The notes under the pieces were generated by a model. The model was given only the letters and a program-made list of their open reading frames with translations. It made no database searches and was not told the DNA's origin. Both the position numbers and the translations under genes were made by a program. A DNA stretch of 39,545 nt. It comes from an uncultured Bacilli bacterium. GTDB lineage: Bacteria > Bacillota_I > Bacilli_A > RF39 > UBA660. This document shows positions 14,360-33,386 of this stretch, in pieces. Each line of letters starts with the position of its first letter. Within the stretch, counting starts at the first letter, position 1. The stretch is taken from NCBI GenBank assembly GCA_947628245.1, contig CANQZH010000001.1, forward strand, positions 1 to 39,545. The letters run 5' to 3'.

Positions 14360-14848
14360 CTATCCTATTTTATAATTTAAATTATCAGCTGGATAATTAA
14401 CATCAATACTTTCACCAAAAACATTAAAAGTTAACAAATCACCTATAACTGGTAAATTAAACTTGAAAAAAAATCTTACTTGATATTTAGAACGTTTAGG
14501 CAAATTTGTTGTCTTTGTACTTATTTTACTTACACAATAATAATACTTTACCTTACTATTACTTACTAACTCTAAAGATGTTGAAGATAAATTTCTTGAA
14601 CCATAATCTCCTTCATTACAATAATGCATAGTTGTATAATTATTATATAATAAATAATTGTTTATTAATTTAATAGCCCCTTTATCACCATCTCTTAAAC
14701 CTTCATATTTTTCAATAAAAGATAATGCCTCATTCTTAATTTTAAATACTTTATTATAATTTAATGATAAAGATAAAAATGAAACAAAGATTAACATAAA
14801 TGCTACTACTAAACCAACTAACCATATACTACCCGTTGACTGTCTCAT
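14360..14848 (-). CDS. TadE/TadF-like pseudopilin (162 aa)
   Basis: The N-terminus is MRQSTG-SIWLVGLVVAFMLIFVSFLSL, a short charged leader ending in Gly followed by a long hydrophobic helix. It lies directly downstream of the pilin genes. Confidence 0.55.
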   Translation of the reverse strand: MRQSTGSIWLVGLVVAFMLIFVSFLSLSLNYNKVFKIKNEALSFIEKYEGLRDGDKGAIKLINNYLLYNNYTTMHYCNEGDYGSRNLSSTSLELVSNSKVKYYYCVSKISTKTTNLPKRSKYQVRFFFKFNLPVIGDLLTFNVFGESIDVNYPADNLNYKIG

Positions 14849-14856
14849 AAATTCAC

Positions 14857-15330
14857 CTACCCTACATATATCGTCTTAGTATCGCCTTGAACTTTAAAAT
14901 TAAATAAATCATGAAAAATTGGCAAATCTAATTGATAAAATACTTCTACACGATAGTAAGATACTGATGGCAATTCATTAGCATAAGTAGAAGATGTATT
15001 ACTAATAACTTTAGCAATACAAAATGCCGCATTATTACTACTTGCTATTTTTCCTTCCCTTGTATAACCTTGATAACCAGCATCACAAGTTCCAGTAGTA
15101 CGATATGCACTATCAGTTAAATATTGAGCAATTTCGCATAAAGCACCATCATCTCCACTACATTCACCACTAATATCTAAACCATTATGAGTTTGTATAG
15201 TTTGAATTATTCGGTCTTTAACATTAAATGCTTTGGACTGATTAATAGTTAGACACATAAAACCAGAAAAAAGCAAGACAAAAACGATTACTATTTGAAA
15301 TAGCCAAGTTCCACCAATCGCTTCTCTCAT
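14857..15330 (-). CDS. TadE/TadF-like pseudopilin (157 aa)
   Basis: The N-terminus is MREAIG-GTWLFQIVIVFVLLFSGFMCL. It has the same architecture as its neighbour and 4 Cys in the predicted extracellular part. Confidence 0.55.
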   Translation of the reverse strand: MREAIGGTWLFQIVIVFVLLFSGFMCLTINQSKAFNVKDRIIQTIQTHNGLDISGECSGDDGALCEIAQYLTDSAYRTTGTCDAGYQGYTREGKIASSNNAAFCIAKVISNTSSTYANELPSVSYYRVEVFYQLDLPIFHDLFNFKVQGDTKTIYVG

Positions 15331-15348: not shown

Positions 15349-15582
15349 TTAACCTTTCCAAACGCATTTAAAATCTTCGCCTTTTTTTCCCTTTAAATGA
15401 CAATTTACCTCAACACAATTATTATCAGGACATTTTTCACAAATTGCTTGGGAACACTTAGTATTGGAATTCATATTATTTCTAATTACTGGCCATAAAG
15501 CAAAATAGAAAAAAGCAGCTAGACCAGCTATTGCCATTATAATAACAACTGACATATTCAATTCTCCAGATGCTTCTTTCAC
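15349..15582 (-). CDS. Flp-like small pilin, paralog 3 (77 aa, 6 Cys)
   Basis: MKEASG-ELNMSVVIIMAIAGLAAFFYFALWPVI is followed by the Cys-rich tail KCSQAICEKCPDNNCVEVNCHLKGKKGEDFKCVWKG. Confidence 0.6.
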   Translation of the reverse strand: MKEASGELNMSVVIIMAIAGLAAFFYFALWPVIRNNMNSNTKCSQAICEKCPDNNCVEVNCHLKGKKGEDFKCVWKG

Positions 15583-15595
15583 TTTTTTACCTCCT

Positions 15596-15832
15596 TTATT
15601 TTGGACTTACATCGGTTCCACTACAATCAAGATAAGTAGGATTTCCATCTTTATCTAAAGCTTCACATACATTACGTTTATCATTACAAGAATAAGCAGA
15701 TGCACATAATGTTTGACGATTTAAATTATTTTTTATTGCAGGCCATATAAACGCATAGAAAAATGCTGCTATTGCGGCTATTGCTACTACAGTTATAACT
15801 GTAATATTCAATTCACCCGTCGCTTCTTTCAT
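15596..15832 (-). CDS. Flp-like small pilin, paralog 2 (78 aa, 4 Cys)
   Basis: The first 43 aa are identical to paralog 1 (MKEATGELNITVITVVAIAAIAAFFYAFIWPAIKNNLNRQTLC). The C-terminal ~35 aa are divergent. Confidence 0.6.
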   Translation of the reverse strand: MKEATGELNITVITVVAIAAIAAFFYAFIWPAIKNNLNRQTLCASAYSCNDKRNVCEALDKDGNPTYLDCSGTDVSPK

Positions 15833-15848
15833 TTACTTATCACCTCTA

Positions 15849-16079
15849 TCATTTAACTGATGTATCTTGTGGTGTACAATTTACAGTAACTACATTTCCA
15901 TCTTTATCTAAGGCACTACAAGAAGTACCCTCACAATGATAAGCAGATGAGCATAATGTTTGACGATTTAAATTATTTTTTATTGCAGGCCATATAAATG
16001 CATAGAAAAATGCTGCTATTGCTGCTATTGCTACTACAGTAATAACTGTTATATTTAATTCACCTGTCGCTTCTTTCAT
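15849..16079 (-). CDS. Flp-like small pilin, paralog 1 (76 aa, 4 Cys)
   Basis: It has a short leader ending in Gly, a ~25-aa hydrophobic helix and a small Cys-containing tail. A strong RBS (GGAGGGA) and a consensus-like promoter lie upstream. Confidence 0.6.
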   Translation of the reverse strand: MKEATGELNITVITVVAIAAIAAFFYAFIWPAIKNNLNRQTLCSSAYHCEGTSCSALDKDGNVVTVNCTPQDTSVK

Positions 16080-18605: not shown

Positions 18606-19555
18606 GTAACATCATCTTCTTTCTTGTCACTTTCTTTAATTATATATAATGGTCTTTTTTTAGTTTCTAAATAAATTTTAGAAATATATGCCGAACAAAT
18701 TCCTAAACAAAATAATTGAATACCTGAAACAAAGAAAATTATACATACTAATGATGGCCACCCACTAACTGGATCACCAAAAACTAATGTTTTAAAAATA
18801 ATAATTAAAATCATAATAAATGAAATAAGACAAAAAATAATTCCTAAAAAAGTTGAAATCATTAAAGGAACTGTCGAAAAGCCAATAATAGCATCAAAAG
18901 CATATAACATTAATTGCCAAAAACTCCATTTAGTTTTTCCGGCAACTCTTTTAACATTGTCATACGTAATCCATTTTGTATTAAATCCTAAATAACTAAA
19001 TAATCCTTTCGAATAACGATTATATTCTGGTATTGTTAATATTGCATCAGCAACTTCTCTTGTCATCAAGCGATAATCTCTTTCTCCAGATACCATTCTA
19101 ACTTTACTTATTTTAGCAATAAATTTATAAAAAGCTTCTGCTAAAAAACTCCTAATTATTGGTTCACCTTTACGATTTTTTCTTTTAGCTATAACTATAT
19201 CATATTTTTCTTTTACAATGCTTTTATACATTTCAATTAAAAGTTTTGGGGGATCTTGTAAATCTACATCCATAAAAGCTACATAATCACCATTTGCATA
19301 TCTTAATCCCGCTAATAAAGCAGCTTCTTTTCCAAAATTTTTAGAAAAAGACAAATAATGAATCCAGCTATTATCACTTTTCAATTTTTTTATGAAATTT
19401 AAAGTGTTATCCCGACTACCATCATCAACAAAAATTATTTCTAAATTTATCTTTTTTTCCTTAAATTTTTCATTAATTTTCATTATTTCTTTATAAAATA
19501 ATAATATACTATCTTCTTCATTAAAACATGGTACAATCACTGATATTTTTTGCAT
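18602..19555 (-). CDS. GT2-family polyprenyl-phosphate glycosyltransferase (CsbB/GtrB/DPM1-like)
   Basis: ISVIVPCFNEE, VDDGSRDNT and DVDLQDPP (DxD) are followed by two C-terminal TM helices, which is the GtrB/CsbB architecture. It is coupled to the yfhO-like gene. Confidence 0.8.
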   Translation of the reverse strand: MQKISVIVPCFNEEDSILLFYKEIMKINEKFKEKKINLEIIFVDDGSRDNTLNFIKKLKSDNSWIHYLSFSKNFGKEAALLAGLRYANGDYVAFMDVDLQDPPKLLIEMYKSIVKEKYDIVIAKRKNRKGEPIIRSFLAEAFYKFIAKISKVRMVSGERDYRLMTREVADAILTIPEYNRYSKGLFSYLGFNTKWITYDNVKRVAGKTKWSFWQLMLYAFDAIIGFSTVPLMISTFLGIIFCLISFIMILIIIFKTLVFGDPVSGWPSLVCIIFFVSGIQLFCLGICSAYISKIYLETKKRPLYIIKESDKKEDDVT

Positions 19556-19609: not shown

Positions 19610-19637
19610 GAAAAAAAGATAACCAAATTGATTATCT
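19610..19637 (-). terminator. Weak hairpin plus T-run after tadC (possible attenuating terminator)
   Basis: On the minus strand, AGATAA-tcaatttgg-TTATCT is followed by T7. The stem is only 6 bp and AT-rich, and it overlaps the tadC stop. Confidence 0.3.
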
Positions 19638-20424
19638 ACATACTCATCATCATTAATAAAGCAAATATTAACAAAATCATTACTCCAACTCCAGTTGCAA
19701 CTAACATTTGCATAGTTTTCTTTTCCATTTTCTCTAAACGTTCTTTATACTTTAATTCACGAGCCTTTTGTTGTAAATTAGAAATAGTTCTAGAAAATGC
19801 CAATAATTGTTCTTGTTTATGTTCTTGCCTTCCTAATGATAAACGATATAATAAACGCATCATTCTCATTGAATCTCTTACTGGATAAGTTTTAGCAAAA
19901 GTCATATAAGGATTTATTGAACTATCACCAGCATTAACTTCGTTTATTAATTGTTGCAAACCTTCTTTAAATATTCCTGGAGCATCATTAATAGATTTTC
20001 CTAGAGCAACTGGAACTGTATAATGTTGAATTAAGATTTCTAAACTTTTTAAATAATGAGGTAGCATCGCATCAATATCATGTAAATGCCTTTTATAATA
20101 ATTTTTCATATTACTATAGTCTAATTTAAAAACTAAATAACCAGCTAATAAAGAAAATAATACAGTTATATAAGTTAAATTAGAAATAAAGAAACATAAC
20201 ATAACAACAATAACAATTAATCCATTTTTAATTCTTTTGTTAAATAAGAAATCAGCATTAACGGTATCACCGTACCTTGCTTTTACATAAAAATCCCAAT
20301 CATTTTCTTTAAGTCTTTGAAAATATACTTCATTATCCGATACAAATCGATTAATACTTATTTTTCCTGTAAAATCAAGAGCAAAGAAAATTAGAATTGC
20401 TAAGCCAACAATCTCAAAATACAT
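19636..20424 (-). CDS. tadC: Tad platform protein, TadC-like (T2SS-F domain)
   Basis: It is a polytopic membrane protein with one N-terminal TM helix, a TM pair, a cytoplasmic helical domain and a C-terminal TM helix. There is a TAATG overlap with the tadB-like gene downstream of tadA. Confidence 0.6.
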   Translation of the reverse strand: MYFEIVGLAILIFFALDFTGKISINRFVSDNEVYFQRLKENDWDFYVKARYGDTVNADFLFNKRIKNGLIVIVVMLCFFISNLTYITVLFSLLAGYLVFKLDYSNMKNYYKRHLHDIDAMLPHYLKSLEILIQHYTVPVALGKSINDAPGIFKEGLQQLINEVNAGDSSINPYMTFAKTYPVRDSMRMMRLLYRLSLGRQEHKQEQLLAFSRTISNLQQKARELKYKERLEKMEKKTMQMLVATGVGVMILLIFALLMMMSM

Positions 20425-21320
20425 TACTCCACCCCCACATCTTCATAATAGAACCGTTCTCCTTTATATAGAAAGAAACAGTTAATCCATATAATACAAT
20501 GTAATATTAATTGAACATACCACATATCTAATAATTTAATGTAAGAGTCAGTACCAAGCAAAAATTGCATAGCCATAACTAATAAGAATAATGCTAGACC
20601 AAAAGTAACAAATCTTTTATGAAAATCAGCTCGATCAATTTGATCTCGATATACACCTTCAACTAAGGCATCAATATCCATTGATAAATTTTCCAAAGCT
20701 TCACCAGAATCCTTAGCACCTTCTTTAGTAATTTGTAAAAATAACTGATTCATATTTTTAACCATATAATATGGATATTTTTGATTAAAAAATTCAATAG
20801 ATTCATCAATAGTACCATTTTGATATGACATATCAATCATAGTTCTAACATCAGTTAATACGGGATCTTCTAATATACCAGAATCTCTAACACCTTCCAA
20901 AGATTTAACAAAACTTTGAGTAGTTGTAAATTCCATTATAACATTTGTAGTATATATTTGAATTTGTTCAAAAATAAATTCAGAATAAGCTTTTTGACAT
21001 CTTAAATAAGCAAGAAAAGGAATAAACAAAACTGCAACTCCAGCATAGATTAAAGCAATAATAATATTATAAAAATATAAATAAGAAATACCACCCGCAA
21101 CAACAGCAAAAACAACAACTTGAGTTAAATATTGCCTTGGAGTATATTCTTGTCCCAATTCTTTAACCTTTTCTCTTACTTGTTTAAAGCTATAAGGAGC
21201 ATATTTATCATAAGCATTAGCAACGCTTTTAGCAAAGAATTTATAAACATTTTCACCATTATTCATATAATATGAAACTGCAAAAACTGCAATGGCTATA
21301 ATAATTATTAATTCAATCAT
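20424..21320 (-). CDS. tadB: Tad platform protein, TadB-like (T2SS-F domain)
   Basis: It has the same topology class as tadC and lies immediately downstream of the TadA ATPase gene. Confidence 0.6.
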   Translation of the reverse strand: MIELIIIIAIAVFAVSYYMNNGENVYKFFAKSVANAYDKYAPYSFKQVREKVKELGQEYTPRQYLTQVVVFAVVAGGISYLYFYNIIIALIYAGVAVLFIPFLAYLRCQKAYSEFIFEQIQIYTTNVIMEFTTTQSFVKSLEGVRDSGILEDPVLTDVRTMIDMSYQNGTIDESIEFFNQKYPYYMVKNMNQLFLQITKEGAKDSGEALENLSMDIDALVEGVYRDQIDRADFHKRFVTFGLALFLLVMAMQFLLGTDSYIKLLDMWYVQLILHCIIWINCFFLYKGERFYYEDVGVE

Positions 21321-21334
21321 ATTCTCCCTTCTTT

Positions 21335-22432
21335 CTATAAAGTTTCTATAGTTGCAACATTAGTTGGCTTATTTTTTTCTTCAACAAATATATCATCTGG
21401 TAAAGTTACTCCCGATATTGATAAATACTCTCTTAAATGATTAGTTGGATTATTCATTGTAATTTCACCAGTTAAAGTCTTTTGAAAAATTGTATTTACT
21501 TGAGGTTTATTTTCTTCATCAACATAAAATTCACAAATTTCCATTATTTCTCTTTGATATCTACCTAATTCCTTACTCATATATCCTTTTACATAAATAC
21601 CAATTTGAACATATCGATGAATTGTTGATAAAAACTGTTCAACATCAACATTACTTTCAATTAAGGCAAACATACGCATTGGTATTAAACTTGCTTTATC
21701 AGAGTGAATTGTTGATAAAATATGGTGTCCTGAAGAAATACTATTACGAACAGCCATAACCGCTTCTGCACTACGAACCTCAGATAATAATATCCATATT
21801 GGATTTTGTCTCATACAAGTTACTAACACATCAGTATAACTAGCAATATTATTAGTTTTCATAGCAATAATATCACGATGAGGAAAAATTCGATCTAAAT
21901 GTAATTCCAAAGTATCCTCAATTGTAATAATTTTTTCATTTTCCTTAGTATGAGAAGCTAAATACTTTACCAATTCAGTTTTACCTGAACCAGTCTCTCC
22001 ACTTACTATTATATTAGCATGACCTTCAACACATTTTAATAAAAAATCAAGAAGACTAGCTGAAATATACTGTTCATTTAATAATTTTTCTCTATTCAAT
22101 CTAATTTTAGAAGGTGTTTTTCTTATTTGACAAGCAATACCATTAGTAGCAATAGAATCGTGAATAAAATTTAAACGCAATTCAGCACTTTCAGCATCTA
22201 AAAAAGGATGAGCCATATTGAAAGTTTTACCCATAACATTTGCACATTGGAAAGCTAATTTTTCTAATAAAGCATTATTAATCTCCGGTCTTTCAACTTG
22301 ATATGAACCTTTATCTAAAGATTTTAGCCATACTTGTCCATTATTACAAATAGATATATCGGTAATATTTTCTTCTCTCAAAAACTCATCTATTGGACCA
22401 AAATCCAGTTGTGAAAATATCGCGTCGTTCAC
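21335..22432 (-). CDS. tadA: TadA/CpaF-family secretion ATPase (T2SS-E / VirB11-like)
   Basis: It has Walker A SGETGSGKTELVKYL, an Asp box (IITIEDTLEL), Walker B WILLSEVRSAEA and a His box GHHILSTIHS. Confidence 0.85.
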   Translation of the reverse strand: MNDAIFSQLDFGPIDEFLREENITDISICNNGQVWLKSLDKGSYQVERPEINNALLEKLAFQCANVMGKTFNMAHPFLDAESAELRLNFIHDSIATNGIACQIRKTPSKIRLNREKLLNEQYISASLLDFLLKCVEGHANIIVSGETGSGKTELVKYLASHTKENEKIITIEDTLELHLDRIFPHRDIIAMKTNNIASYTDVLVTCMRQNPIWILLSEVRSAEAVMAVRNSISSGHHILSTIHSDKASLIPMRMFALIESNVDVEQFLSTIHRYVQIGIYVKGYMSKELGRYQREIMEICEFYVDEENKPQVNTIFQKTLTGEITMNNPTNHLREYLSISGVTLPDDIFVEEKNKPTNVATIETL

Positions 22433-22461: not shown

Positions 22462-23304
22462 TTAATCATTATTATTATCATTGTTATTATTATTGTTGCT
22501 ACTTGTACTAGTTGAAATATTTTCATCTGGTATAACTTCAGTTTTAGATAAAATAAATTCTTTAACATAATCACTAGCAACTTCAGTTTCTCCAGGATTT
22601 GCTGTATAGTTCTTATTTCTTGGAACTGGTACTATTTCAACATTATACCCAGATAAATATTGAGCTTTTTTTAGTAATGAATACATATCATCAGGTACTG
22701 CAAATAATAAATCTGATGGTGTTCTTGCTTCACCAGATGTTTCAAATACTGATTTACCCTGTGAATCACGAACATCTAATACTTTAATACTACTAATTAA
22801 ATTAGTATACATTAATCGATTATAATCATTAGTTCCTTTAAACCATAAATCAATATAGTTTCCAGGGAATATTGAGTTACCATATGTAGTATGTAAATCT
22901 ACTGGTAAAGAAAATAATGTATAACCATTAGGAATATCAGCTGTAACACTATCAGGTTGTGTTTCAGGTGAAACAACTGTTTCCGTATAGAAGAAACTAT
23001 TTTGAGGAATAGTCGTTCCATACATAACTTCCTTACCAATTAATTGATTAGCATTTCTAATCATATTACTACTTTTACTCAATACTGTGCTAGAAACTTC
23101 CATAAAGCCAATATCATCATCAGTTATAACATGTCTAGAAGCTAAAGTCGTTTTAGCATATGGAATAGTTGTTGGATTAATAGCATTATTAACCCTCCAA
23201 GTATATCCTAAATACAAAACCAAAATACCAATAACAACACATATAATTGTTACCGTATTCTTATTACTTAAAAATTTCTTTAAATTAGCTCCAATATTTC
23301 CCAT
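22462..23304 (-). CDS. CpaB/RcpC-like pilus assembly protein (N-terminal TM, SAF-like domain) with a poly-Asn C-terminal tail
   Basis: The TM helix is VTIICVVIGILVLYLGY. AKTTLASRHVITDDDIGFMEVSS...LIGKEVMYGTTIPQNSFF matches the SAF/CpaB pattern. The tail is STSTSSNNNNNNDNNND. Confidence 0.55.
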   Translation of the reverse strand: MGNIGANLKKFLSNKNTVTIICVVIGILVLYLGYTWRVNNAINPTTIPYAKTTLASRHVITDDDIGFMEVSSTVLSKSSNMIRNANQLIGKEVMYGTTIPQNSFFYTETVVSPETQPDSVTADIPNGYTLFSLPVDLHTTYGNSIFPGNYIDLWFKGTNDYNRLMYTNLISSIKVLDVRDSQGKSVFETSGEARTPSDLLFAVPDDMYSLLKKAQYLSGYNVEIVPVPRNKNYTANPGETEVASDYVKEFILSKTEVIPDENISTSTSSNNNNNNDNNND

Positions 23305-23321: not shown

Positions 23322-23729
23322 CTAATCATTAGAATTCATTTCTAATAATGCATCTACTCTATTTACAATATCAAAAGTTTCTGTACTAGAATTAATTTGA
23401 TAAGTATTACTTTTAGATGTAACTTCCACACTTACTTTTGGTGGAGCTTCATAAAGATTATAAAAGTTAACTGTACTAGTTCCCGTAGGAATACTTTCAG
23501 ATAATCTTCTTAAAAAATTTTCCACAAATTTTTCTTTATTAATTCTTAATTCTCCACTTTCACGGTAGTAGCCATAATCGACAGCGTCGATCATAGCTGC
23601 TTCCGAAATTTCTTTTAATACATAATAATCTTGAGTATTCGTCGTAGAAACATTAGAAATTAACATCATTATAACAATTACTCCAACACCTAACGCAATT
23701 ATCCAATATCCCCAAAAAGATTCTTTCAT
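23322..23729 (-). CDS. 135-aa protein with a pilin-like N-terminus (cassette B, third gene)
   Basis: The N-terminus is MKESFWG-YWIIALGVGVIVIMMLISNV, followed by a ~105-aa domain. It is a paralog of 27925..28332. Confidence 0.6.
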   Translation of the reverse strand: MKESFWGYWIIALGVGVIVIMMLISNVSTTNTQDYYVLKEISEAAMIDAVDYGYYRESGELRINKEKFVENFLRRLSESIPTGTSTVNFYNLYEAPPKVSVEVTSKSNTYQINSSTETFDIVNRVDALLEMNSND

Positions 23730-23739
23730 TTTTTACCTC

Positions 23740-26700
23740 CTATTTCCAAGATGGTCCAATTCCATCTTTTCTACTTAATACACAATTACCATTAGTTACA
23801 CAATATTTAGAATCTAACCATAAAGTAAAATCAGGTCTTTCAACATTCGAAGTAAAATATTTATTAGAATTACTATTTAAGAAAGTACTACGACATTTAA
23901 CACTATATTCAATACCAGTATTTGGATCAACATATCTTTCACATTTCAAAGCATTTTCTCCAGCATTTTCTTCACCTTCAGGAATAGTAGTATTAGCATA
24001 TGTCTGAGCTTTTTCATTATATGACCTTATATTTGCTTTTTGTTGTTGAGTTATTGTATACGAATATTCTGGATTTTCATAGGCATCTTCACCTAACTCT
24101 TCAATATCATTCTTAGTAGTTTGAGCTTTTAAAGTTTGCCAATTGTATCCAGCATTTCGACAATCACTTTGATTTTCAATAGTACAAGAATTAGGGAATA
24201 AATCATTTAATGTTACAGTTCTAAACTTATAAGTTGTATTATTACCATCAAAGATACAAGTCTTACAATTAACTTCACATTCACCATCACATTCTTCGTG
24301 AATAGTACAATTATCGCCCTCACAACCAACTTCACATTCATCACAGTTATTAACATAAGCACATACATATCCAGCTTCCTGAGTTAATGTACTATTATTA
24401 CCAGTATTTCCACATTTTTTCTCTTGTGGTAACTTATTATATTCAGTTAATACACTAATATTATCACCAGAACTTACTAATCTACCTAATGCATCACTAC
24501 TATTTGATTGACCAATATTACTAAATTTCAAGACAAATGGGAATGCTCCCTTACCAGTTCTAAGTTCAACTGGTAATGCATCAGCAGGTAATCTAGTCCA
24601 TAAGCACTCAGTAAAACTTGTACCTTCGCAAATAGTTCCGCTCTTTACTGTACCATATTGATGGTATGTACTAAAGCTTTGATTTGGAATATAAGTACCA
24701 GCCATTGTCTTAGTCTTTTGAATCCATTTAGCTTGGCTAACAATAGTTTCAGCATTTCGACAACCATTACTATCACAAACAGTATAAGTTAAATTTTTAT
24801 ATAAACCACTAGGAGCAGCACTATTATTTGAAACTAAAGCACCACTTAAACATCTATATTGATTATCAGTATCACCTAAACAATAAGTATCTGAAGTTAC
24901 TGTTGAAACACTGCCACTTAGAGCAAATTTACCATTAGATATTTTAGCATATTCTTCTTCATGATAAGTAAAATTAACCTCTGGACTAAACTTCATACTA
25001 TTTTGCCATCCAGTTGAACAAGCATTGTATTCAGCAATAGTTTCTTGCATTTCATTATTTAAAGCAACTAATTTATTATAATTATCCTCACTCTTATCAG
25101 CATTCCATCTATTATAAGCATTAGTAACTTTTTCATTTATCTTTTTAATATCATCCTCAAATAGCTCAGTATCAATTGGTTTATCAGGATTTTCAGCAGA
25201 ACTTACATAACAATTTCTTGTTCCACTTATTTTAGTAGATAAAGTAAAGTAACCACCACTTGTTGAATATCTAGCTGTTGGTACTGAAAATTGATAATCT
25301 TCATCACACCAAACTTTACAATAACGATTATTTTTCAACTCATTAACAGCTTCATATGAAGTACCAGTCTGATCATTAGCATCTATTACACATTGTTTTA
25401 CAGGATTAACCGTTTCATTACAATCAGACTTAACTTTATTAATATCACTTATTGTACCTGTAATCTCACTTTCAGTATTAAAATTATTACACGTTCCAGG
25501 TACTGAAACAGTTGCATTACAATTTGGACATTTTTCAGCATATTCATCACAAGCTGGATCTTTCGGATTTTGTTCACACTTATCCTTTAATGGTGGACAA
25601 TAACAATCATCTAAGTATTCTCTTTCACTACATTGTTGGCCACCTTGATCTTCAACTTTCTCATTGCAATAATAAACATTATCATCATTTTGATCAGGAG
25701 TTTCACAAATATGTAAACATTGTTTACGATATTTAGCTCTAGTAGTAGCTTTACCATCATTACCATAATATGTTTTATTACCAGCAGCATCATACTCAAT
25801 ACTACAAGAATTAGTACATTTATCAGGACAACCTAATGAACCAACTCTTGGATCATCTTTAAGAACTTTTTCAGTAGAAACATTACCATCAGGAGAAGTT
25901 GTAGATAAAATATAATTTCCTGTATATTTACCATTTACCTCTTCACATACACATTCATTTGTAGGAGGAAGTTTTAACTCAGTTTGAATTAAGAAAGAAG
26001 GACTATAATTCTTAATTACTAACATTCTTTGTTCTGTTTTAAGATTAGGTGGATCGACAACAAACATATTTGCTGTTGGATTTCTATTATCCCTAAATGC
26101 TGTCTTAATTCTAATACCATATTTTTGATCAGCACTTGGTTTACCATTTTTTGTATTAATTCTAACAGTATATCTACCTTTATATCCCCCATTAGGATCA
26201 GCTATTTTTTTCTCAGTAATATCATCTTTGCCATTACAAGTATAACCATTCTCGCAAGTTATTTGAAATTGTTTCCATTTAATTTCTTCAGGCGCATGCC
26301 CATTTTTAGCACTTATATCAAATTTAATAGTAACATAATCGCCTTCTAATTTAGTATTAACAATACTAATATCCCAAGCATCTTCCCAAATAGTTCCATT
26401 TTTTACTAATTGTTCATATGTGGTTTTTTTATTCTTAATTTTATCTCCAACTTTAACAGCATCTTCAGCAATTTTTAAAGCAGCTTTAACAGCAGAATTA
26501 CTTAAATTCCAAAAGCTTCTATTTCTTCTATTTTCCCATAAATACTTACGGTTTTCAACACTACTACCATTACGATTAACATCAAGTTTTCCATAATAAG
26601 CTTCAATCCATCTAAAAACTAAAGTTCCTATCATTCTAACTTGGGCAGATTGTTTACCTCCATCATAATATTTACTTTTTATCATTTGTTGATAAGCATA

Positions 26701-27051
26701 AGTTGCAGCAACATCAGATGCTTGATATGAGCCTTTCTTTTGAGGTGAAATAACTCTTTCACACACGTGACTTTTTTCAATCATATCCTTAGCAGGAGCT
26801 AAACAATATGATTGACCATATAATTCACCATTTTTAGTAATGTTATAAAAATTAATATGTGATCCTGTCGCGTCACTAGAACCAACATGATCTAATCTAA
26901 CATACTTTTCAGGACATTTAGGTTCTTCAGAAGTAACAGCAGCAGTTACATTAAAAAATGTATACTCTTTTTCTTCTGCTTTAACAACATTAACATTAAT
27001 TAATAAAATAAATACATATAAAGTAAATAATACTTTCAAAACTTTTTTCAT
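23740..27051 (-). CDS. 1103-aa secreted Cys-rich protein (cassette B, second gene); no family recognised
   Basis: The Sec signal is MKKVLKVLFTLYVFILLINVNVVKA-EE. I hand-counted about 49 Cys. There is no LPXTG or C-terminal TM helix. It is a paralog of 28344..31766 with conserved Cys positions. Confidence 0.8.
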   Translation of the reverse strand: MKKVLKVLFTLYVFILLINVNVVKAEEKEYTFFNVTAAVTSEEPKCPEKYVRLDHVGSSDATGSHINFYNITKNGELYGQSYCLAPAKDMIEKSHVCERVISPQKKGSYQASDVAATYAYQQMIKSKYYDGGKQSAQVRMIGTLVFRWIEAYYGKLDVNRNGSSVENRKYLWENRRNRSFWNLSNSAVKAALKIAEDAVKVGDKIKNKKTTYEQLVKNGTIWEDAWDISIVNTKLEGDYVTIKFDISAKNGHAPEEIKWKQFQITCENGYTCNGKDDITEKKIADPNGGYKGRYTVRINTKNGKPSADQKYGIRIKTAFRDNRNPTANMFVVDPPNLKTEQRMLVIKNYSPSFLIQTELKLPPTNECVCEEVNGKYTGNYILSTTSPDGNVSTEKVLKDDPRVGSLGCPDKCTNSCSIEYDAAGNKTYYGNDGKATTRAKYRKQCLHICETPDQNDDNVYYCNEKVEDQGGQQCSEREYLDDCYCPPLKDKCEQNPKDPACDEYAEKCPNCNATVSVPGTCNNFNTESEITGTISDINKVKSDCNETVNPVKQCVIDANDQTGTSYEAVNELKNNRYCKVWCDEDYQFSVPTARYSTSGGYFTLSTKISGTRNCYVSSAENPDKPIDTELFEDDIKKINEKVTNAYNRWNADKSEDNYNKLVALNNEMQETIAEYNACSTGWQNSMKFSPEVNFTYHEEEYAKISNGKFALSGSVSTVTSDTYCLGDTDNQYRCLSGALVSNNSAAPSGLYKNLTYTVCDSNGCRNAETIVSQAKWIQKTKTMAGTYIPNQSFSTYHQYGTVKSGTICEGTSFTECLWTRLPADALPVELRTGKGAFPFVLKFSNIGQSNSSDALGRLVSSGDNISVLTEYNKLPQEKKCGNTGNNSTLTQEAGYVCAYVNNCDECEVGCEGDNCTIHEECDGECEVNCKTCIFDGNNTTYKFRTVTLNDLFPNSCTIENQSDCRNAGYNWQTLKAQTTKNDIEELGEDAYENPEYSYTITQQQKANIRSYNEKAQTYANTTIPEGEENAGENALKCERYVDPNTGIEYSVKCRSTFLNSNSNKYFTSNVERPDFTLWLDSKYCVTNGNCVLSRKDGIGPSWK

Positions 27052-27053
27052 TT

Positions 27054-27815
27054 TTATCTTCCCTCTATATTTTGCTTAAAACCAATTTGTTTTTTTCGAT
27101 ATCTAATTATAGCAACAATAACAATTGCAATTACCAATACCCCTACAATAATAATTTCAATATTTAAAATATTTTTTTTATTACTTTCTTCTTCATTTTC
27201 TTTTTTTGTTTCACTATCATTTTTTTTACTTTCTTGTGATTCTAAATATTCACCATAAGCTGTCTCACCATCTATTTCACTAGTTACATATTCTTGGCAA
27301 TAATAACTATCATTATTTTCACAATACAAATATGAAGAATTTTGATTATACATTGGTGTTTTTAATTCAACTGTTCTTAATTCTTGATTAATACAATCTG
27401 AAACAGCTGAATATATTATTAATTTATAAGTTCTAATTTTAATAGTATCAGGTACTTCATAAGTTATTGTTCCATTTTTAGTATCATTATAATGATACTC
27501 TTTATTTAAACCATCATCAAGATTTTGTAAAACAACATATATCTTATCAGTAACGTTTTCTATTTTAATTGTAACTTTATCCTCCATAAGATATTCACTT
27601 AATTCACCTTCTTCAACACTTGAAGGTGAAACTTCAGGATGAAGAACTCCATTTCTATCATACACAACTGTATCAATGTTGTAATTAAATGTAACATTCG
27701 ATGAAACTGTATTAATTTCAAGTTGAGTTTTATTATCACATTCTGCTTTTACCTTTCCTATCGAAAACATTGTCATTATACATAATAGTAACAAATAAGC
27801 TTTTTCTTTTTTCAT
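27054..27815 (-). CDS. ~253-aa type I membrane protein (cassette B, first gene): signal peptide, beta-rich ectodomain with 4 Cys, acidic/Lys linker, C-terminal TM helix
   Basis: The ORF track starts at 27842, but a near-consensus -10 abuts that ATG. I therefore prefer the ATG at 27815 (MKKEKAYLLLLCIMTMFSIGKVKA-ECDNK), which has GGTGA 7 nt upstream. The C-terminal TM helix is IIIVGVLVIAIVIVAII, followed by RYRKK. Confidence 0.65.
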   Translation of the reverse strand: MKKEKAYLLLLCIMTMFSIGKVKAECDNKTQLEINTVSSNVTFNYNIDTVVYDRNGVLHPEVSPSSVEEGELSEYLMEDKVTIKIENVTDKIYVVLQNLDDGLNKEYHYNDTKNGTITYEVPDTIKIRTYKLIIYSAVSDCINQELRTVELKTPMYNQNSSYLYCENNDSYYCQEYVTSEIDGETAYGEYLESQESKKNDSETKKENEEESNKKNILNIEIIIVGVLVIAIVIVAIIRYRKKQIGFKQNIEGR

Positions 27816-27842
27816 TAATTTCACCAACCCATTTATACTCAT

Positions 27843-27871
27843 ATTCTACCAAATTATCATATCATTTTCAA
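27843..27871 (-). promoter_or_regulatory. SigA-type promoter of cassette B (TG-extended -10)
   Basis: On the minus strand, TTGAAA (27871..27866), a 17-nt spacer and TGgTAGAAT (-10 at 27848..27843). Confidence 0.55.
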
Positions 27872-27900: not shown

Positions 27901-27927
27901 AAAAAGAGTGAAAAATAACTCACTCTA
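27901..27927 (-). terminator. Rho-independent terminator after cassette A
   Basis: On the minus strand, AGAGTG-agttattttt-CACTCT is followed by a T-run. It overlaps the stop of the 135-aa gene at 27925. Confidence 0.45.
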
Positions 27928-28332
27928 ACTATTTGAATCTAACTCTAATATAGCATCTACTCTATTAACTATATCAAAACTTTCAACATTAGAATTTAAC
28001 TGATAAGTATTACTTTTTGTTATAACTTGAACACTAGCTTTTGGAGGAGATTCATAAATACTATAAAAATCAATTTGATAAGTACTTAAAGATACATTTT
28101 CTGCAAATCTTCTTAAAAAATTTTCTACAAATTTTTCTTTATTTATTCTTAACTCTCCACTTTCACGATAATAACCATAATCTACAGCATCTACCATTGC
28201 CGCTTCAGATATTTCTTTTAAAACATAATAATCTTGAGTATTAGTTGCTGAAACATTAGATATTAGCATCATAACTATTATAACTCCAACACCTAAAACT
28301 ATTAACCAATAGCCCCAATAAGATTCTTTCAT
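27925..28332 (-). CDS. 135-aa protein with a pilin-like N-terminus (cassette A, third gene)
   Basis: The N-terminus is MKESYWG-YWLIVLGVGVIIVMMLISNV. The first ~75 aa are almost identical to 23322..23729. Confidence 0.6.
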   Translation of the reverse strand: MKESYWGYWLIVLGVGVIIVMMLISNVSATNTQDYYVLKEISEAAMVDAVDYGYYRESGELRINKEKFVENFLRRFAENVSLSTYQIDFYSIYESPPKASVQVITKSNTYQLNSNVESFDIVNRVDAILELDSNS

Positions 28333-28343
28333 CTTTTAACCTC

Positions 28344-31300
28344 CTATTTCCAAGATGGTCCAATTCCATCAGTCCTACTTAAACAATTACCTAATGGACA
28401 ATAATCAGTTTCAGTCCATAATTTAAATCCACTAGCATTTCTTGCAAGTTGAGTAAAATATTTACCAGTATTTTCATTTAAGAAAGTACTTACACATTTA
28501 ACACTGTAATCTAAACCATTATAATTTTTCTTTTTACACTGATAAGCATCAGTCCCATCTTCCATTGTCGTATTTTCATATGTACCTACGTCTTTATTAT
28601 ATTGTCTTATAGCCATTAATTGACTAGCAGTTACTAAATAAGAATACTCAGGAGTTTCATAAACACCATTACCATTACCTTCAATATCATTTTTAGTAAC
28701 CTGTGCTTTTAAAGTTTGCCAATTATAACCTTCTTTTCGACAATTTACACTATTAGTTTCACAAGAATTAGGGAATAAATTATTTAATGAAACAGTTCTA
28801 AATTTATATGTCGTATTTTCTCCATCAAATATACAAGTCTTACAAGACACTGGACAATCACCTTCACAAGTTTCATGAATAGAACAACTATCTCCCTCAC
28901 ATCCAACACTACAAGAATCACAATTATTAACATAAGCACAAACATAACCAGCTTCTTGTTCAAATATTCCTCTTGGATTTTCACACTGAGCAACATCAGA
29001 AGTAACATAAGCATTTAATACACTATTGCTTCTTCCAATTAATCTTCCTAATGAATTATCAATATTTGATTGACCAATATTTGCAAATGAAAGAACAAAC
29101 TTAAAGGCACCTTTACCAGTTTTAAGTTCAACCGGTAAAGCATCATCTGGAAGTCTAGTCCATAAACAACTATCATAACCAGTTACCGAACATACAGAAC
29201 CAGTTTTAACTGTTCCATATTGATGATAAGTATTAAAATTTTGACCTGGAGTAAAATTACCCGATTTAGTTACTGTTTTTTGAATCCAATTTGCAAGATT
29301 AATTCCAAAACTATTCCACGTACAAGTACTTTCATTACAACTAATATATTGATAAATAGAACCAGTCATCGGTGGTGTAGAATAAGATGTTCCAATACAA
29401 TTATATTGACTATTTATATTACCAACACAATAATTTACCGAACTACTAACACTTGGGTCTCCAACCATTTTAAATGTACCAGCTCTTGTATCATAACCAT
29501 AATCATCATAATTAAAGTTAATTGCCGGATTAAAATTCAAATCAGAATCAGGCATATTAACCCAATTAGAACAAGCTTGATAATTACTAACATATAATTG
29601 AATATTAGTATTAGTTCTTTCATACAAACTTCTACTCTTACTTTCTTGATCAATAATTTCATTTTTAGACATCTCAACTTGTTCACCACTTACAACATTA
29701 CTATGACTAGCATCAGTTATTTGAAGATAATTTGCACAAGTATATTTCTTATCTTCATCACTAGCTGGATCACTTCCTGTACCAGCAAGACAAGCTCTCC
29801 ATTTACTCCATTCATTCCAATATCTTAATAAATCAACATTTAAAGCAGAAATTTCATTAATAAATTCCGTACTATTAATACCTTCAGTTGGATCATCAGC
29901 AGAAGCCGTATAACAATTTCTTGTTCCGGTAATCGCAGCATTTAAAGTGAAATATCCACCACTAGTAGAATATCTTGCAGTTGGAACTGTAAATTGATAA
30001 TTTTCATCACAATATACTTTACAATATCTATTTCCATTCATAAGTTTCTTAGCTTCAAAACTTTCACCAGACATATCATTTTTACCTAGAACACACATCT
30101 TAACATTATTAGCACTATTATTACAAGCTGTCTTAGCTGGATTTATATCATAGAAATAACCACCAACAGATGAATTAACATCAAAATCATTACAACTATT
30201 TGGAATTGATGAACTAGCTCGACAATTAGGACATTTTTCTTCGTACTCAGCACAATCAGGATCACTAGGATTAGCAGTACATTTTTCTTTTCTAGGTGTA
30301 CAATAACATTCTTCAATATATTCTTGACCATTACATACCCTACCGCTATTATCAGTTCCTGGATCAGCACAATAATAAAGACCTTCTTCATTATCACTAG
30401 GAGTTTCACAAATATGTAAACATTGGCTCTTATATGTAGCTTGATCAACAATATTACTACTTCCATCATCAGTATCTTTACCATAATAAGTTACAGTACC
30501 ATCAGGATTTACAATTCTCTCACATTCATAATCTTCGGTATCACCGCAAGGAGGGCAATTATAAGTAGCAAAATTTGGATCAGTATTGTCAACAATTGCA
30601 CTTGTTGTTACTCCATTTGTAGTAGTATATAAAATATATCTACCAGTATAATTATTAGAATCATCTGCTTCACAAACACAAGAAGTAGTTGGTTCAAATG
30701 GAATTTCCCTTTGTATTTGAAACGTTTTACTATAATTTTTAACTAAAATAAATTTTTGATAACTTGCATGGTTTGTTGGTTTATATATCATTATATGAGC
30801 ATTTGGATTTTTTATATCACCATAGCTTACTGTAACTTTAGCAAGATTATATTTTTCGTTCCATTTACCCTTCGTCTTTTGAATAGTTATATTAAAAGTT
30901 CCACTTCTATTTTTATTACTACTAACTAAACTACTACTAACTAATTTATTATTATCATTTTTAGTTTCGAATTTAAAACTTCCCCAATTGACTACACTAG
31001 GAGCTTTTACAGGATTTTTAGGAGCTATCGTAACATTTAAAACTACATTATTTTTATCATCAGGACCAGTAACACTATTAATTGTTGAAATCCACTCATC
31101 AGTCCATATTACTCCAGCATCAACTAATTGTTGATAAGTTTTCTTACCCTTTAAAATATAATCACCATATTTTACAGCATCCTTAACTAAAGATAAAGCA
31201 GCTTTAACCTCGGATGTATCTTGATACCAATATGTTGTACTATTTCGGCTTTTATAAGAGAAAATATTAAATTTATAATCATTATCTCCAATTGACTCTA

Positions 31301-31766
31301 AATAACCATATCGTGACGCAATCCATCTAAATGCCATCGTTCCAATTAAACTACTTCTTCTTCTACCACTACTCTCCGTATTTGAAATATATTTATTAGC
31401 AATCATTAATTGATAAGCTCTCGTAATTGCTACATCAAAAGCTTGCCTATTAAGGCTAGATGAATTTTCAGGATTAATTTCTCTAACACAAGTATGTTGT
31501 CCGTTATTAAAATCAGATGTAGCCCCAGGTTTAAAACAAAAAGCTTGACCATAAGCCCCTGTATTACTTGAAGCCTTTTTTTTAGTAGTAAACATATTAT
31601 AAAAATTAATAACATCTTTTTTACAATGTGATCTATCTACCCCAACATGATGCAAATATAAATAAGTGTATTGGCAACCTCCATCAGAAATATTTTTTCC
31701 CTCTGCTTTTACTACACTTAAAAAACAAAATAATAAGATAAAACTATATATTATTTTTTTAAACAT
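28344..31766 (-). CDS. 1140-aa secreted Cys-rich protein (cassette A, second gene); no family recognised
   Basis: The Sec signal is MFKKIIYSFILLFCFLSVVKA-EG. I hand-counted about 50 Cys. It ends ...DGIGPSWK like its paralog, and has no wall-sorting signal. Confidence 0.8.
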   Translation of the reverse strand: MFKKIIYSFILLFCFLSVVKAEGKNISDGGCQYTYLYLHHVGVDRSHCKKDVINFYNMFTTKKKASSNTGAYGQAFCFKPGATSDFNNGQHTCVREINPENSSSLNRQAFDVAITRAYQLMIANKYISNTESSGRRRSSLIGTMAFRWIASRYGYLESIGDNDYKFNIFSYKSRNSTTYWYQDTSEVKAALSLVKDAVKYGDYILKGKKTYQQLVDAGVIWTDEWISTINSVTGPDDKNNVVLNVTIAPKNPVKAPSVVNWGSFKFETKNDNNKLVSSSLVSSNKNRSGTFNITIQKTKGKWNEKYNLAKVTVSYGDIKNPNAHIMIYKPTNHASYQKFILVKNYSKTFQIQREIPFEPTTSCVCEADDSNNYTGRYILYTTTNGVTTSAIVDNTDPNFATYNCPPCGDTEDYECERIVNPDGTVTYYGKDTDDGSSNIVDQATYKSQCLHICETPSDNEEGLYYCADPGTDNSGRVCNGQEYIEECYCTPRKEKCTANPSDPDCAEYEEKCPNCRASSSIPNSCNDFDVNSSVGGYFYDINPAKTACNNSANNVKMCVLGKNDMSGESFEAKKLMNGNRYCKVYCDENYQFTVPTARYSTSGGYFTLNAAITGTRNCYTASADDPTEGINSTEFINEISALNVDLLRYWNEWSKWRACLAGTGSDPASDEDKKYTCANYLQITDASHSNVVSGEQVEMSKNEIIDQESKSRSLYERTNTNIQLYVSNYQACSNWVNMPDSDLNFNPAINFNYDDYGYDTRAGTFKMVGDPSVSSSVNYCVGNINSQYNCIGTSYSTPPMTGSIYQYISCNESTCTWNSFGINLANWIQKTVTKSGNFTPGQNFNTYHQYGTVKTGSVCSVTGYDSCLWTRLPDDALPVELKTGKGAFKFVLSFANIGQSNIDNSLGRLIGRSNSVLNAYVTSDVAQCENPRGIFEQEAGYVCAYVNNCDSCSVGCEGDSCSIHETCEGDCPVSCKTCIFDGENTTYKFRTVSLNNLFPNSCETNSVNCRKEGYNWQTLKAQVTKNDIEGNGNGVYETPEYSYLVTASQLMAIRQYNKDVGTYENTTMEDGTDAYQCKKKNYNGLDYSVKCVSTFLNENTGKYFTQLARNASGFKLWTETDYCPLGNCLSRTDGIGPSWK

Positions 31767-32536
31767 TATACTCCCCTCATACTTTCCATCTCTTTAGTTC
31801 TTTTTCTTCTCTTAAAAATACTAACAATAATTATAACTAACAATATAAAAATAATCACAATCCCAACAGAATATAATATTATATTTTTAGAATTATCTTC
31901 TTTATTATTTTGAGTAGGATTTTCTTCTTCATCAGGCGTTTCCATATTTTTCATATACTCGTCTAATAAACGTCTATATTCACTTTCACTTATACTAACA
32001 TCAGTTGTAACATATTTATTACAATAACTAGCATTATTATTTTGACAAACACCTTCTTCAAAATAATCATTATACTTAGGTGTTGCAACTTCTATTTTCC
32101 TTAATTCTTCCGTTTCACAATCCAAAGACTCTGAAAAAATTGTCAAAGTATAATGTCTAATATTTAAAGTATCAGGAACATCATAAATAAGAGAGCCATC
32201 TTCTAAATCTTTATAATGATATTCTTTATTAATGTTATCCTCGGCACTATATAAAGCAACATACACTTTATCAGTAACATTACTAATTTTAAGCACAACC
32301 CTTTCATCTAATTGATAAGATGAAGTTTCAGAAATTTCAATATCACTAGGATTCAATTCCCGATGAATATTACCATCAATATCAAAAACAAACGTTTCAA
32401 TTTCATAATCCATAGTAACATTAGAAGCAGCCGTACTAAGTTCTAATCGAGCTTTACTATCACATACAGCATTAACTTTATTAATAAAACCAAACAAAAC
32501 AAGTAAAAATAACAAATATCTGCCTGTGTTTTTCAT
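31766..32536 (-). CDS. ~256-aa type I membrane protein (cassette A, first gene)
   Basis: The ORF-track start (TTG at 32569) lies inside the predicted -10 element. I prefer the ATG at 32536 (MKNTGRYLLFLLVLFGFINKVNA-VCDSK). The C-terminal TM helix is ILYSVGIVIIFILLVIIIVSIF, followed by KRRKR. There is a TAATG overlap with the 1140-aa gene. Confidence 0.65.
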   Translation of the reverse strand: MKNTGRYLLFLLVLFGFINKVNAVCDSKARLELSTAASNVTMDYEIETFVFDIDGNIHRELNPSDIEISETSSYQLDERVVLKISNVTDKVYVALYSAEDNINKEYHYKDLEDGSLIYDVPDTLNIRHYTLTIFSESLDCETEELRKIEVATPKYNDYFEEGVCQNNNASYCNKYVTTDVSISESEYRRLLDEYMKNMETPDEEENPTQNNKEDNSKNIILYSVGIVIIFILLVIIIVSIFKRRKRTKEMESMRGV

Positions 32537-32559
32537 ATTACCATTCCTATCTTTAGTTA

Positions 32560-32588
32560 AATATACCAAAAATAAATAATTAATTCAA
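32560..32588 (-). promoter_or_regulatory. SigA-type promoter of cassette A (TG-extended -10)
   Basis: On the minus strand, TTGAAT (32588..32583), a 17-nt spacer and TGgTATATT (-10 at 32565..32560). The layout matches the cassette B promoter. Confidence 0.5.
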
Positions 32589-32681: not shown

Positions 32682-33386
32682 ATGAATTTAAAAAAATTAG
32701 GAAAAGCATTTTTAATTATTATTTTATATTTGGTAATTGTTCCCCAAATAATTGGTTTAATTTGTTTACCATTTTTTGATTTAGAAAATCCCACTGTTTT
32801 AACAATCTTAAATTTATTAATCTATATTATCGATATAATTATTATTTTTATTATATATCGTAAAAGCATTAAAGAAGAATGGCACAAATTCACCAAAAAT
32901 TTTAAAAATTATTTTAGTATAGCCTTAAAAAATTGGGGAAAAGGTTTTTTATTAATGTTTATTTTTAATATAATAATTATTAATGTAGTTGGTAAAATAG
33001 CTAGTAATGAATCACAAAATAGAGAAATATTAAATCAATTACCAGTCTTTTCTTCCATAGCAATGGTTTTCTTAGGACCTATATTAGAAGAATTTGCTTT
33101 TCGAAAAGGTTTTAAAGATGTTTTTAAATCAGAAAAAATCTTCTTAATCTTTACTGCTCTTTTATTTGGTTCTTTCCACGTAATTAGTAATTTAGATTAT
33201 AGTTCTATCCAAGCCTTTCTAAGTAGTTCAAAAGAATTACTATACATTTTACCTTATGCTAGTTTAGGTTATTATTTTGGTAAAGCCTATTATGAAACTG
33301 ATTGTATTTTTACTAGTATAACAGCTCATATGCTACATAATGGTATATCTATTTTCTTTATTTTATTAGGAACAATGTTAGGATGA
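32682..33386 (+). CDS. CPBP-family intramembrane glutamic protease (CAAX protease / Abi-like)
   Basis: It is polytopic and carries the CPBP motifs EEFAFRKG, FGSFH and HMLHN. Confidence 0.75.
   Translation: MNLKKLGKAFLIIILYLVIVPQIIGLICLPFFDLENPTVLTILNLLIYIIDIIIIFIIYRKSIKEEWHKFTKNFKNYFSIALKNWGKGFLLMFIFNIIIINVVGKIASNESQNREILNQLPVFSSIAMVFLGPILEEFAFRKGFKDVFKSEKIFLIFTALLFGSFHVISNLDYSSIQAFLSSSKELLYILPYASLGYYFGKAYYETDCIFTSITAHMLHNGISIFFILLGTMLG

Follow-up and report, generated by a model that had tools for sequence, protein, structure and literature searches.

What is the role of two small paralogous proteins encoded directly after the genes of giant secreted proteins and near those of a putative pilus? 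The question is raised by a 39,545-nucleotide stretch of DNA (hereafter the window; GenBank assembly GCA_947628245.1, contig CANQZH010000001.1, positions 1 to 39,545) from an uncultured Bacilli bacterium, in which two three-gene cassettes, each ending in a gene for a 135-residue protein of the Pfam family DUF5411, precede a cluster of genes resembling those of Tad pili. An initial annotation of this DNA had suggested that the 135-residue proteins are minor pilins or adaptors that dock each giant protein onto the filament. We tentatively favor, with confidence that falls short of even, a version of that suggestion in which DUF5411 couples each surface cassette, and hence its giant, to a Tad-like type IV filament machine as a TadG/CpaL-like subunit. 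An adaptor role fits the context evidence and is well supported; the entry of DUF5411 into the pilus as a true minor pilin is unproven.

DUF5411 is an established Pfam entry, and a connection with loci of the CpaF type had been noted before. The only paper that mentions it reports co-occurrence with CpaF and PilC/GspF in Clostridia and leaves its role unassigned (PMC9523054). New here are the cassette architecture, a leader that DUF5411 has in common with the pilins of the locus, a modular C-terminal repertoire, and a conserved tail on the giant proteins.

Two DUF5411 Paralogs under Contrasting Selection

The genes of interest in the window are all on the minus strand, and their order is given 5' to 3' along that strand. 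Open reading frames for the two 135-residue proteins had been placed at 27925..28332 (protein A) and 23322..23729 (protein B) and are indeed found there, each as the final gene of its cassette and directly after the gene for a giant protein (1140 residues in cassette A and 1103 in cassette B), as the initial annotation had it. Both are full-length members of PF17424, matching over residues 1-132 of 135 with 186.3 bits (A) and 180.9 bits (B), against a gathering score of 30 bits. The family comprises about 2000 members in a collection clustered at 90%, or 581 representatives at 50% identity, and the closest relatives of the window's copies come from metagenome-assembled genomes of uncultured low-GC gut Bacilli (rabbit, ruminant, mouse, and human).

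The two proteins start MKESFWGYWIIALGVGVIVIMMLISNV and MKESYWGYWLIVLGVGVIIVMMLISNV, and the start is supported in both genes by a GGAGG ribosome-binding site 7-8 nucleotides before the ATG. The sequences bear out the description of a leader, MKESYWG in copy A (28312-28332) and MKESFWG in copy B (23709..23729), followed by about 20 hydrophobic residues (28252-28311 in copy A; residues 8-27, at 23649..23708, in copy B), among which G14 is nearly invariant in DUF5411.

The copies share 102 of 134 residues (76%), unevenly distributed. Over residues 1-75, 68 of 75 are identical, with 47 identical codons, 21 synonymous changes, and 7 nonsynonymous ones; over residues 76-135, identity falls to 34 of 60 (57%), with 8 synonymous and 26 nonsynonymous changes. 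The excess of synonymous over nonsynonymous differences in codons 1-75 shows that the N-terminal half is kept by purifying selection, and the 21 synonymous differences rule out recent gene conversion as the source of its identity. Evolution of the C-terminal third is nearly neutral or diversifying in rate. It had been claimed that the C-terminal part diverges together with the partner giant. The near-invariance of residues 1-75 and the divergence of residues 76-135 stand, but the C-terminal regions have diverged less (57% identity) than the giants (41%), stronger conservation of the N-terminal than of the C-terminal part is a general trait of the DUF5411 family, and co-divergence of the DUF5411 C-terminus with the giant is not separable from plain genetic linkage.

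A Duplicated Cassette Ahead of a Putative Filament Machine

Each cassette begins with a gene for a protein that has a signal peptide and a C-terminal transmembrane anchor (267 residues, 31766..32569, in cassette A; 262 residues, 27054..27842, in cassette B), in a position that is conserved in related loci. There follow the giant secreted Cys-rich protein (28344..31766 in A; 23740..27051 in B, where a Sec-type signal peptide is recognizable) and DUF5411. The cassette partners are more diverged than the DUF5411 pair, at 41% identity for the giants and 44% for the membrane proteins. A terminator-like hairpin with a T-run (27905..27926) closes cassette A, and a promoter-like site lies before cassette B (TTGAAA, a 17-nucleotide spacer, and TG-n-TAGAAT; 27843..27871; a consensus match only); together these make cassette A look like a transcription unit of its own, with cassette B reading into the pilus genes. 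The promoter-like site is of the extended -10 type.

We compared the window with 80 genome and 80 metagenome loci (160 loci, about 2 Mb) from two divergent DUF5411 clades. Gene order is essentially invariant in about 130 loci of both clades: a protein of about 210-290 residues with signal peptide and C-terminal anchor, a secreted protein of 600-1400 residues, DUF5411, a CpaB-like protein, an ATPase, TadB, TadC, pilins, pseudopilins, and a 345-residue protein. DUF5411 is duplicated with each cassette in the window and in three other loci (L008, L028, and L068), and it is retained in orphan cassettes that stand beside housekeeping genes with no pilus genes near (L063 and L066; also L064/L065, by gene content). 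Four loci (L020, L025, L059, and L060) have a single DUF5411 for two pairs of membrane protein and giant. DUF5411 is thus a component of the cassette, although not strictly one per giant.

These arrangements bear on an alternative that we regard as possible, if doubtful: that DUF5411 is an uncleaved type II signal anchor at the base of the machine, beside the CpaB-like protein, where it retains or hands over the giant without ever becoming a filament subunit, and that its fused versions (taken jointly with the anchor in this estimate) are wall-spanning linkers bearing hydrolase or adhesin domains. The invariable adjacency of DUF5411 to the CpaB-like gene, which in the window starts 17 nucleotides after DUF5411 gene B, suits such an anchor well. 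For a single structural component of the machine, however, there would be no need of a copy in each cassette or of retention in orphan ones.

A Leader in Common with the Pilins and Pseudopilins

The pilins of these loci start MKEATG followed by ELN, and the pseudopilins M[RK]E[AS]IG, across dozens of species, with a near-invariant Gly6. The start M[KR]E[AS], which the DUF5411 proteins also have, was found in just one of 1591 other open reading frames of at least 150 residues in the 160 related loci. The likeness of the DUF5411 leader to those of the pilins and pseudopilins is real and nonrandom. Within DUF5411, moreover, residues 1-7 are conserved better than any other segment (mean majority fraction 0.85, versus 0.67 for the membrane helix); such conservation would be unexpected in a plain signal anchor, and the anchor alternative leaves unexplained both this and the rare start that DUF5411 has in common with pilins and pseudopilins.

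Might the likeness nevertheless be a coincidence, produced for instance by a translation-start preference in an AT-rich genome, with DUF5411 functionally unconnected to the filament? In low-GC genomes MK starts occur commonly, and the glycine stands in another register than in the pilins. We consider this highly improbable in view of the background frequency of the motif (1/1591), the strict synteny with filament genes across two divergent clades, and the link of DUF5411 to CpaF and PilC/GspF that has been published independently for Clostridia (PMC9523054).

The claim that the leader mirrors those of the pilins holds for the start M[KR]E[AS], common to both and rare elsewhere, but not for the glycine, which in the 135-residue proteins is at position 7, against Gly6 in the pilins and pseudopilins; position 6 is Trp. 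This offset is the first of several observations that weigh against DUF5411 being a processed pilin. The residues after G7 read YWIIALGVGV, so that no acidic residue lies close to the putative mature N-terminus and Glu5 has no counterpart. Glu5 is missing from some tip pseudopilins as well, GspK among them. The processing motifs G/XXXXEY (Flp) and G/XXXXE(F) are absent from DUF5411, the Pfam TadE and Flp models do not match it, and no TadE or Flp_Fap model of Pfam or NCBIfam does so at E<=0.1; none of this places it in the TadE, TadF, or Flp families. Aligned with hhalign to the profiles of the two pseudopilins, which are clear paralogs of one another (E=1.6e-51), DUF5411 matches over residues 1-15 only, with a probability below 10%.

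Conservation of the glycine itself also varies. Across 146 representatives, position 7 is G in 74%, A in 12%, S in 7%, T in 3%, and I in 3% (G, A, or S in 93%). In one clade, whose DUF5411 proteins start MKWSF, Glu3, Trp6, and Gly7 are all replaced, and position 7 is S, T, Q, A, or L; the pilins (MKEATG) and pseudopilins (MR[DE][AS]xGG) of the same clade retain their leader. Loss of Gly7 where the pilin leader is kept argues against a cleavage site conserved throughout the DUF5411 family, and the lack of any family-wide glycine position ahead of the helix is among the points in favor of an uncleaved anchor.

A processing enzyme is likewise not evident near these genes, which also agrees with an anchor. 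No Pfam match to an A24 prepilin peptidase was found in the window, and no polytopic open reading frame with a GxGD motif in the 160 related loci within 10 kb of DUF5411; nor was a TadV peptidase found at the window locus. Two nearby candidates were considered and set aside. A conserved upstream open reading frame of about 150 residues proved to encode a membrane-anchored CxxC thioredoxin-like protein rather than a prepilin peptidase, and the neighboring CPBP protease was dropped as an alternative processing enzyme because the MKWSF clade does not have it next to the cassette. In one genome that has an orphan cassette, a canonical type IV or Com-type prepilin is also encoded (MKNNKGFLLAE..., L070 13199-13705), so at least some hosts probably have a classical prepilin peptidase elsewhere.

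Predicted Structure of DUF5411

An AlphaFold2 model of DUF5411, built from an alignment of 66 sequences (predicted local distance difference test score, pLDDT, 81), begins with a single unbroken helix (residues 3-48), after which two shorter helices (52-58 and 65-79) and five β-strands make up a small α/β domain. The modeled topology is pilin-like and would be compatible with a lollipop fold. A Foldseek comparison of this model with the PDB gave a best E-value of 0.06 and no pilin among the matches, and sequence and profile searches of the PDB with DUF5411 returned nothing; both results count against a pilin, and the lack of a homology or fold match to pilins is again what a signal anchor would predict. 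DUF5411 further has no Cys at all, in contrast to the Cys-rich pilins, pseudopilins, giants, and cassette membrane proteins, a difference that also favors an anchor.

A Conserved Tail on the Giant Proteins

Giant B matches no Pfam or NCBIfam family. Between giants A and B the N-terminal part is variable and a C-terminal region of about 300 residues is conserved. Both end in the pentapeptide GPSWK (28347-28361 in giant A; 23743..23757 in giant B). Among 71 unique giants from the related loci, 37 end in GP[SA]WK-COOH, including giants without detectable homology to those of the window; the tail was noted in giants of L001-L062. In an alignment justified to the right, the last five positions have an entropy of 1.8-2.3 bits and the 25 before them one of 3.5-3.9 bits. 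Where two giants share one DUF5411 (L020, L025, and L059), both carry GP[AS]WK. Other clades have conserved giant tails of their own (..DWP, ..K[IV]GDF, and ..EGGN[PS]).

We regard the GP(S/A)WK tail as a candidate docking peptide. It recalls PilY1/PilC, the last approximately 10 residues of which attach to a minor pilin of the PilK family through β-strand addition (PMC13533445). A model of the giant was of unusably low confidence (10 sequences, pLDDT 47, and below 50 over residues 790-1103), and two homology searches for the giant gave only 7 matches and 1 match.

Variable C-Terminal Modules in the DUF5411 Family

Of 150 DUF5411 representatives, 118 are lengthened at the C-terminus by 70-570 residues, frequently with a low-complexity linker in between, and all 118 long relatives also match PF17424. 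Pfam domains in the extensions are Peptidase_M15 (10), Flg_new (7), Dockerin (4), and C39-like (4), with single or rare occurrences of M23, VanY, SH3, Big_2, and PT-HINT (pretoxin). Extended proteins include P0134, P0139, P0143, P0151, P0168, P0170, P0172, P0181, P0183, and P0192, and further ones are encoded at L038 303-3614, L039 10001-11362, and L041 7051-8577. A Rosetta-stone test, in which the C-terminal extensions of 199 long DUF5411 proteins were compared with the giants and cassette membrane proteins, found no homology between them.

DUF5411 is thus an N-terminal module that presents variable extracellular domains. Its modular layout resembles that of TadG/CpaL, and equally that of a membrane-anchored wall-spanning protein. 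The latter comparison is a further point against a tip subunit: long low-complexity linkers combined with peptidoglycan hydrolase modules suit a protein anchored in the membrane and spanning the wall no less well than they suit a tip subunit. Peptidase_M15, with its EWWH motif, in about 10 of the 118 long DUF5411 proteins and M23 or VanY in others, all behind long Ser/Gly/Asn-rich linkers, accordingly add to the case for a signal anchor.

The same modules could also mean that DUF5411 is mainly a scaffold for cell-wall remodeling, which recruits or carries peptidoglycan hydrolases for passage of the filament or giant through the thick wall and is linked to the giant by operon neighborhood only. 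M15, M23, VanY, C39-like, and SH3 modules fused to DUF5411 in some lineages are what such a scaffold would lead one to expect. Hydrolase domains, however, occur in a minority, the other proteins having Flg_new, Dockerin, Big_2, or, as in the window, no added domain; the short form has no catalytic motif; and duplication of DUF5411 with the giants argues for a cassette-specific role. We consider a wall scaffold improbable.

The Tad-Like Machine and Neighboring Genes

Downstream of cassette B the minus strand encodes a CpaB/RcpC-like protein of 280 residues (22462..23304; Pfam RcpC, 27.9 bits against a cutoff of 28.8; TIGR03177, E=2.4e-8) and a secretion ATPase of 365 residues from the VirB11/TadA/FlaI-like group (21335..22432; Pfam T2SSE, 88.7 bits). 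The NCBIfam matches of the ATPase are all below their cutoffs; VirB11 is the best, and VirB11, TadA-like, FlaI, and ComGA score about equally. Two polytopic TadB/TadC-like platform proteins of 298 and 262 residues (19636..21320) were recognized by position and by their conservation in all loci. Further along are three small pilin-like genes (about 77 residues, 15349..16079), starting MKEA(T/S)G and then ELN, and the two paralogous pseudopilin-like genes (about 160 residues, 14360..15330), starting MREAIG and MRQSTG, after which comes the 345-residue protein, which is without assigned identity.

The platform proteins, pilins, and pseudopilins have no match to curated Pfam or NCBIfam families, and sequence and profile searches found no PDB sequence match for the pilin-like and pseudopilin-like proteins. 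The putative mature N-terminus of pilins and pseudopilins has Glu at +1 instead of the Flp motif G/XXXXEY. "Tad-like" is thus a fair description of the cluster, its membership in that class not being proven; by its sequences, the locus is probably a very divergent type IV filament system. At mature positions 3-5, N-x-T/S is conserved among pilins of the window's clade (ELN[MI]T); the MKWSF clade, where the residues read EVSMT, has lost it.

A pair of glycosyltransferases, one of family GT2 (CsbB-like) and one of the YfhO type, is encoded between tadC and the pilin genes (16140-19555, minus strand). The pair is also present in L001, L004, and L023, YfhO occurs alone in L052/L053, and both are absent from most other loci. 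A CPBP/Rce1-like intramembrane protease (32682-33386) and a metallophosphoesterase (33391-34233) lie divergently beside cassette A on the plus strand; many loci of the closer clade keep both genes there, but those of the MKWSF clade do not.

The membrane-anchored thioredoxin-like CxxC protein mentioned above (about 147-169 residues) is encoded divergently upstream of cassettes in relatives, for example on the minus strand of the loci at L011 1655-2116, L083 4623-5066, and L086 6629-7138. Together with the Cys-rich giants, pilins, pseudopilins, and membrane proteins, it suggests extracellular disulfide formation in an anaerobe. Near the start of the window, on the minus strand, is a gene for a CotJB spore-coat domain protein (400-861), a hint that this reduced-genome Bacilli lineage keeps sporulation-related genes.

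A Hypothesis for DUF5411 Function

In the coupling mechanism that we favor, the conserved N-terminal half of DUF5411, comprising the leader, the long helix, and helix 65-79, would behave like a TadG/CpaL-type pilin module. Its leader may be recognized by the same factor as those of the M[KR]E[AS]xG pilins and pseudopilins, and this half would dock either in the machine or at a filament end. A cargo would be held noncovalently by the C-terminal β-sheet, which evolves fast: in the window the giant of about 1100 residues, possibly bound via its GPSWK carboxy-terminus. In other lineages the cargo would instead be fused to DUF5411 as C-terminal modules, such as adhesin repeats, dockerin, and cell-wall hydrolases. 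Besides synteny and the leader, we count in favor of this mechanism the G, A, or S at position 7 in 93% of representatives, the pilin-like topology of the model, the TadG/CpaL-like layout of the extended proteins, the contrast in selection between the two halves, the conserved giant tail, and the published analogues among Tad tip cassettes and PilY1/PilC. As for the original suggestion of a minor pilin or adaptor, an adaptor fits the synteny, the co-duplication, the orphan cassettes, and the leader, but a minor pilin is not established, given the offset glycine, the lack of pilin homology or fold, and the lack of a nearby A24 candidate.

A bolder version of the hypothesis can be put forward, which we think unlikely. 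It proposes that DUF5411 and the GP[SA]WK tail constitute an unrecognized docking system that loads interchangeable, Sec-secreted adhesins of about 1100 residues on a divergent, archaeal-flavored Tad-like filament of monoderm gut Bacilli, and that the pilins, pseudopilins, and DUF5411 share a new class of leader, M[KR]E[AS]x(x)G, that a noncanonical enzyme processes. The noncanonical enzyme is invoked because no A24 peptidase is encoded near the loci.

If coupling of this kind takes place, a family of about 2000 members with no assigned function would become the coupling subunit between swappable giants and a pilus machine, and the GP(S/A)WK tail would be a simple docking signal. The "adaptable tip" logic of Gram-negative Tad and type IVa pili would then extend to uncultured, genome-reduced Gram-positive gut bacteria. 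The hosts are frequent inhabitants of animal and human guts whose means of adhesion have hardly been characterized.

Comparison with Known Systems

Neither the canonical tad locus of Bulleidia (PMC12786226) nor the TANB77 pilus cluster (PMC11680825) is the system described here. Closer is the system predicted in Roseburia, Ruminococcus, and Eubacterium from CpaF, PilC/GspF, DUF5411, and an internalin-like protein (PMC9523054), in which DUF5411 is likewise linked genomically with a platform protein and an ATPase of the CpaF type and the InlB-type repeat matches the Flg_new modules found in some DUF5411 proteins. The cassettes, common leader, and giant tail are not described there, and the hosts are Clostridia rather than low-GC uncultured Bacilli.

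The giants recall PilY1/PilC, which is carried on PilK-family minor pilins (PMC13533445): each is a Sec-secreted nonpilin of approximately 1000-1100 residues with a variable N-terminal part, a conserved C-terminal part, and a conserved extreme C-terminal peptide, and each is encoded next to a small pilin-like gene, with two paralogs in one genome. No homology with the giants was detected, a PilY1-like fold of theirs would be conjectural, and their tail is a pentapeptide, GP[SA]WK, whose binding by DUF5411 is purely hypothetical.

The cassettes themselves are reminiscent of the Kil Tad pilus of Myxococcus, which has interchangeable "Tip" cassettes, KilL/M/N (PMC12075869). There, as here, a genome may hold several paralogous three-gene cassettes, some of them away from the core pilus genes, that combine a conserved base with a variable, Cys-rich exposed part. 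All three Kil proteins, however, are pilin-like and have predicted peptidase sites, whereas in the window a pilin-like topology is seen in DUF5411 only, and the other two cassette proteins have Sec signal peptides, one of them with a C-terminal membrane anchor.

TadG/CpaL, which consists of a pilin-like module of about 120 residues and a functional domain (PMC12607857), is the known protein on which our preferred reading of DUF5411 is patterned. DUF5411 differs from it in having no sequence or Foldseek similarity to pilins and no G/A-X4-E/F cleavage motif, in occurring as a short 135-residue form that is paired with a separate giant instead of bearing a grafted domain, and in belonging to a monoderm host with a very divergent machine. 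The features in common (PMC12607857, PMC13533445, PMC12075869) are an N-terminal hydrophobic helix with a small module of about 120 residues, variable functional domains grafted at the C-terminus, a Tad-type locus with two smaller pseudopilins, and a proposed position at the tip of the filament.

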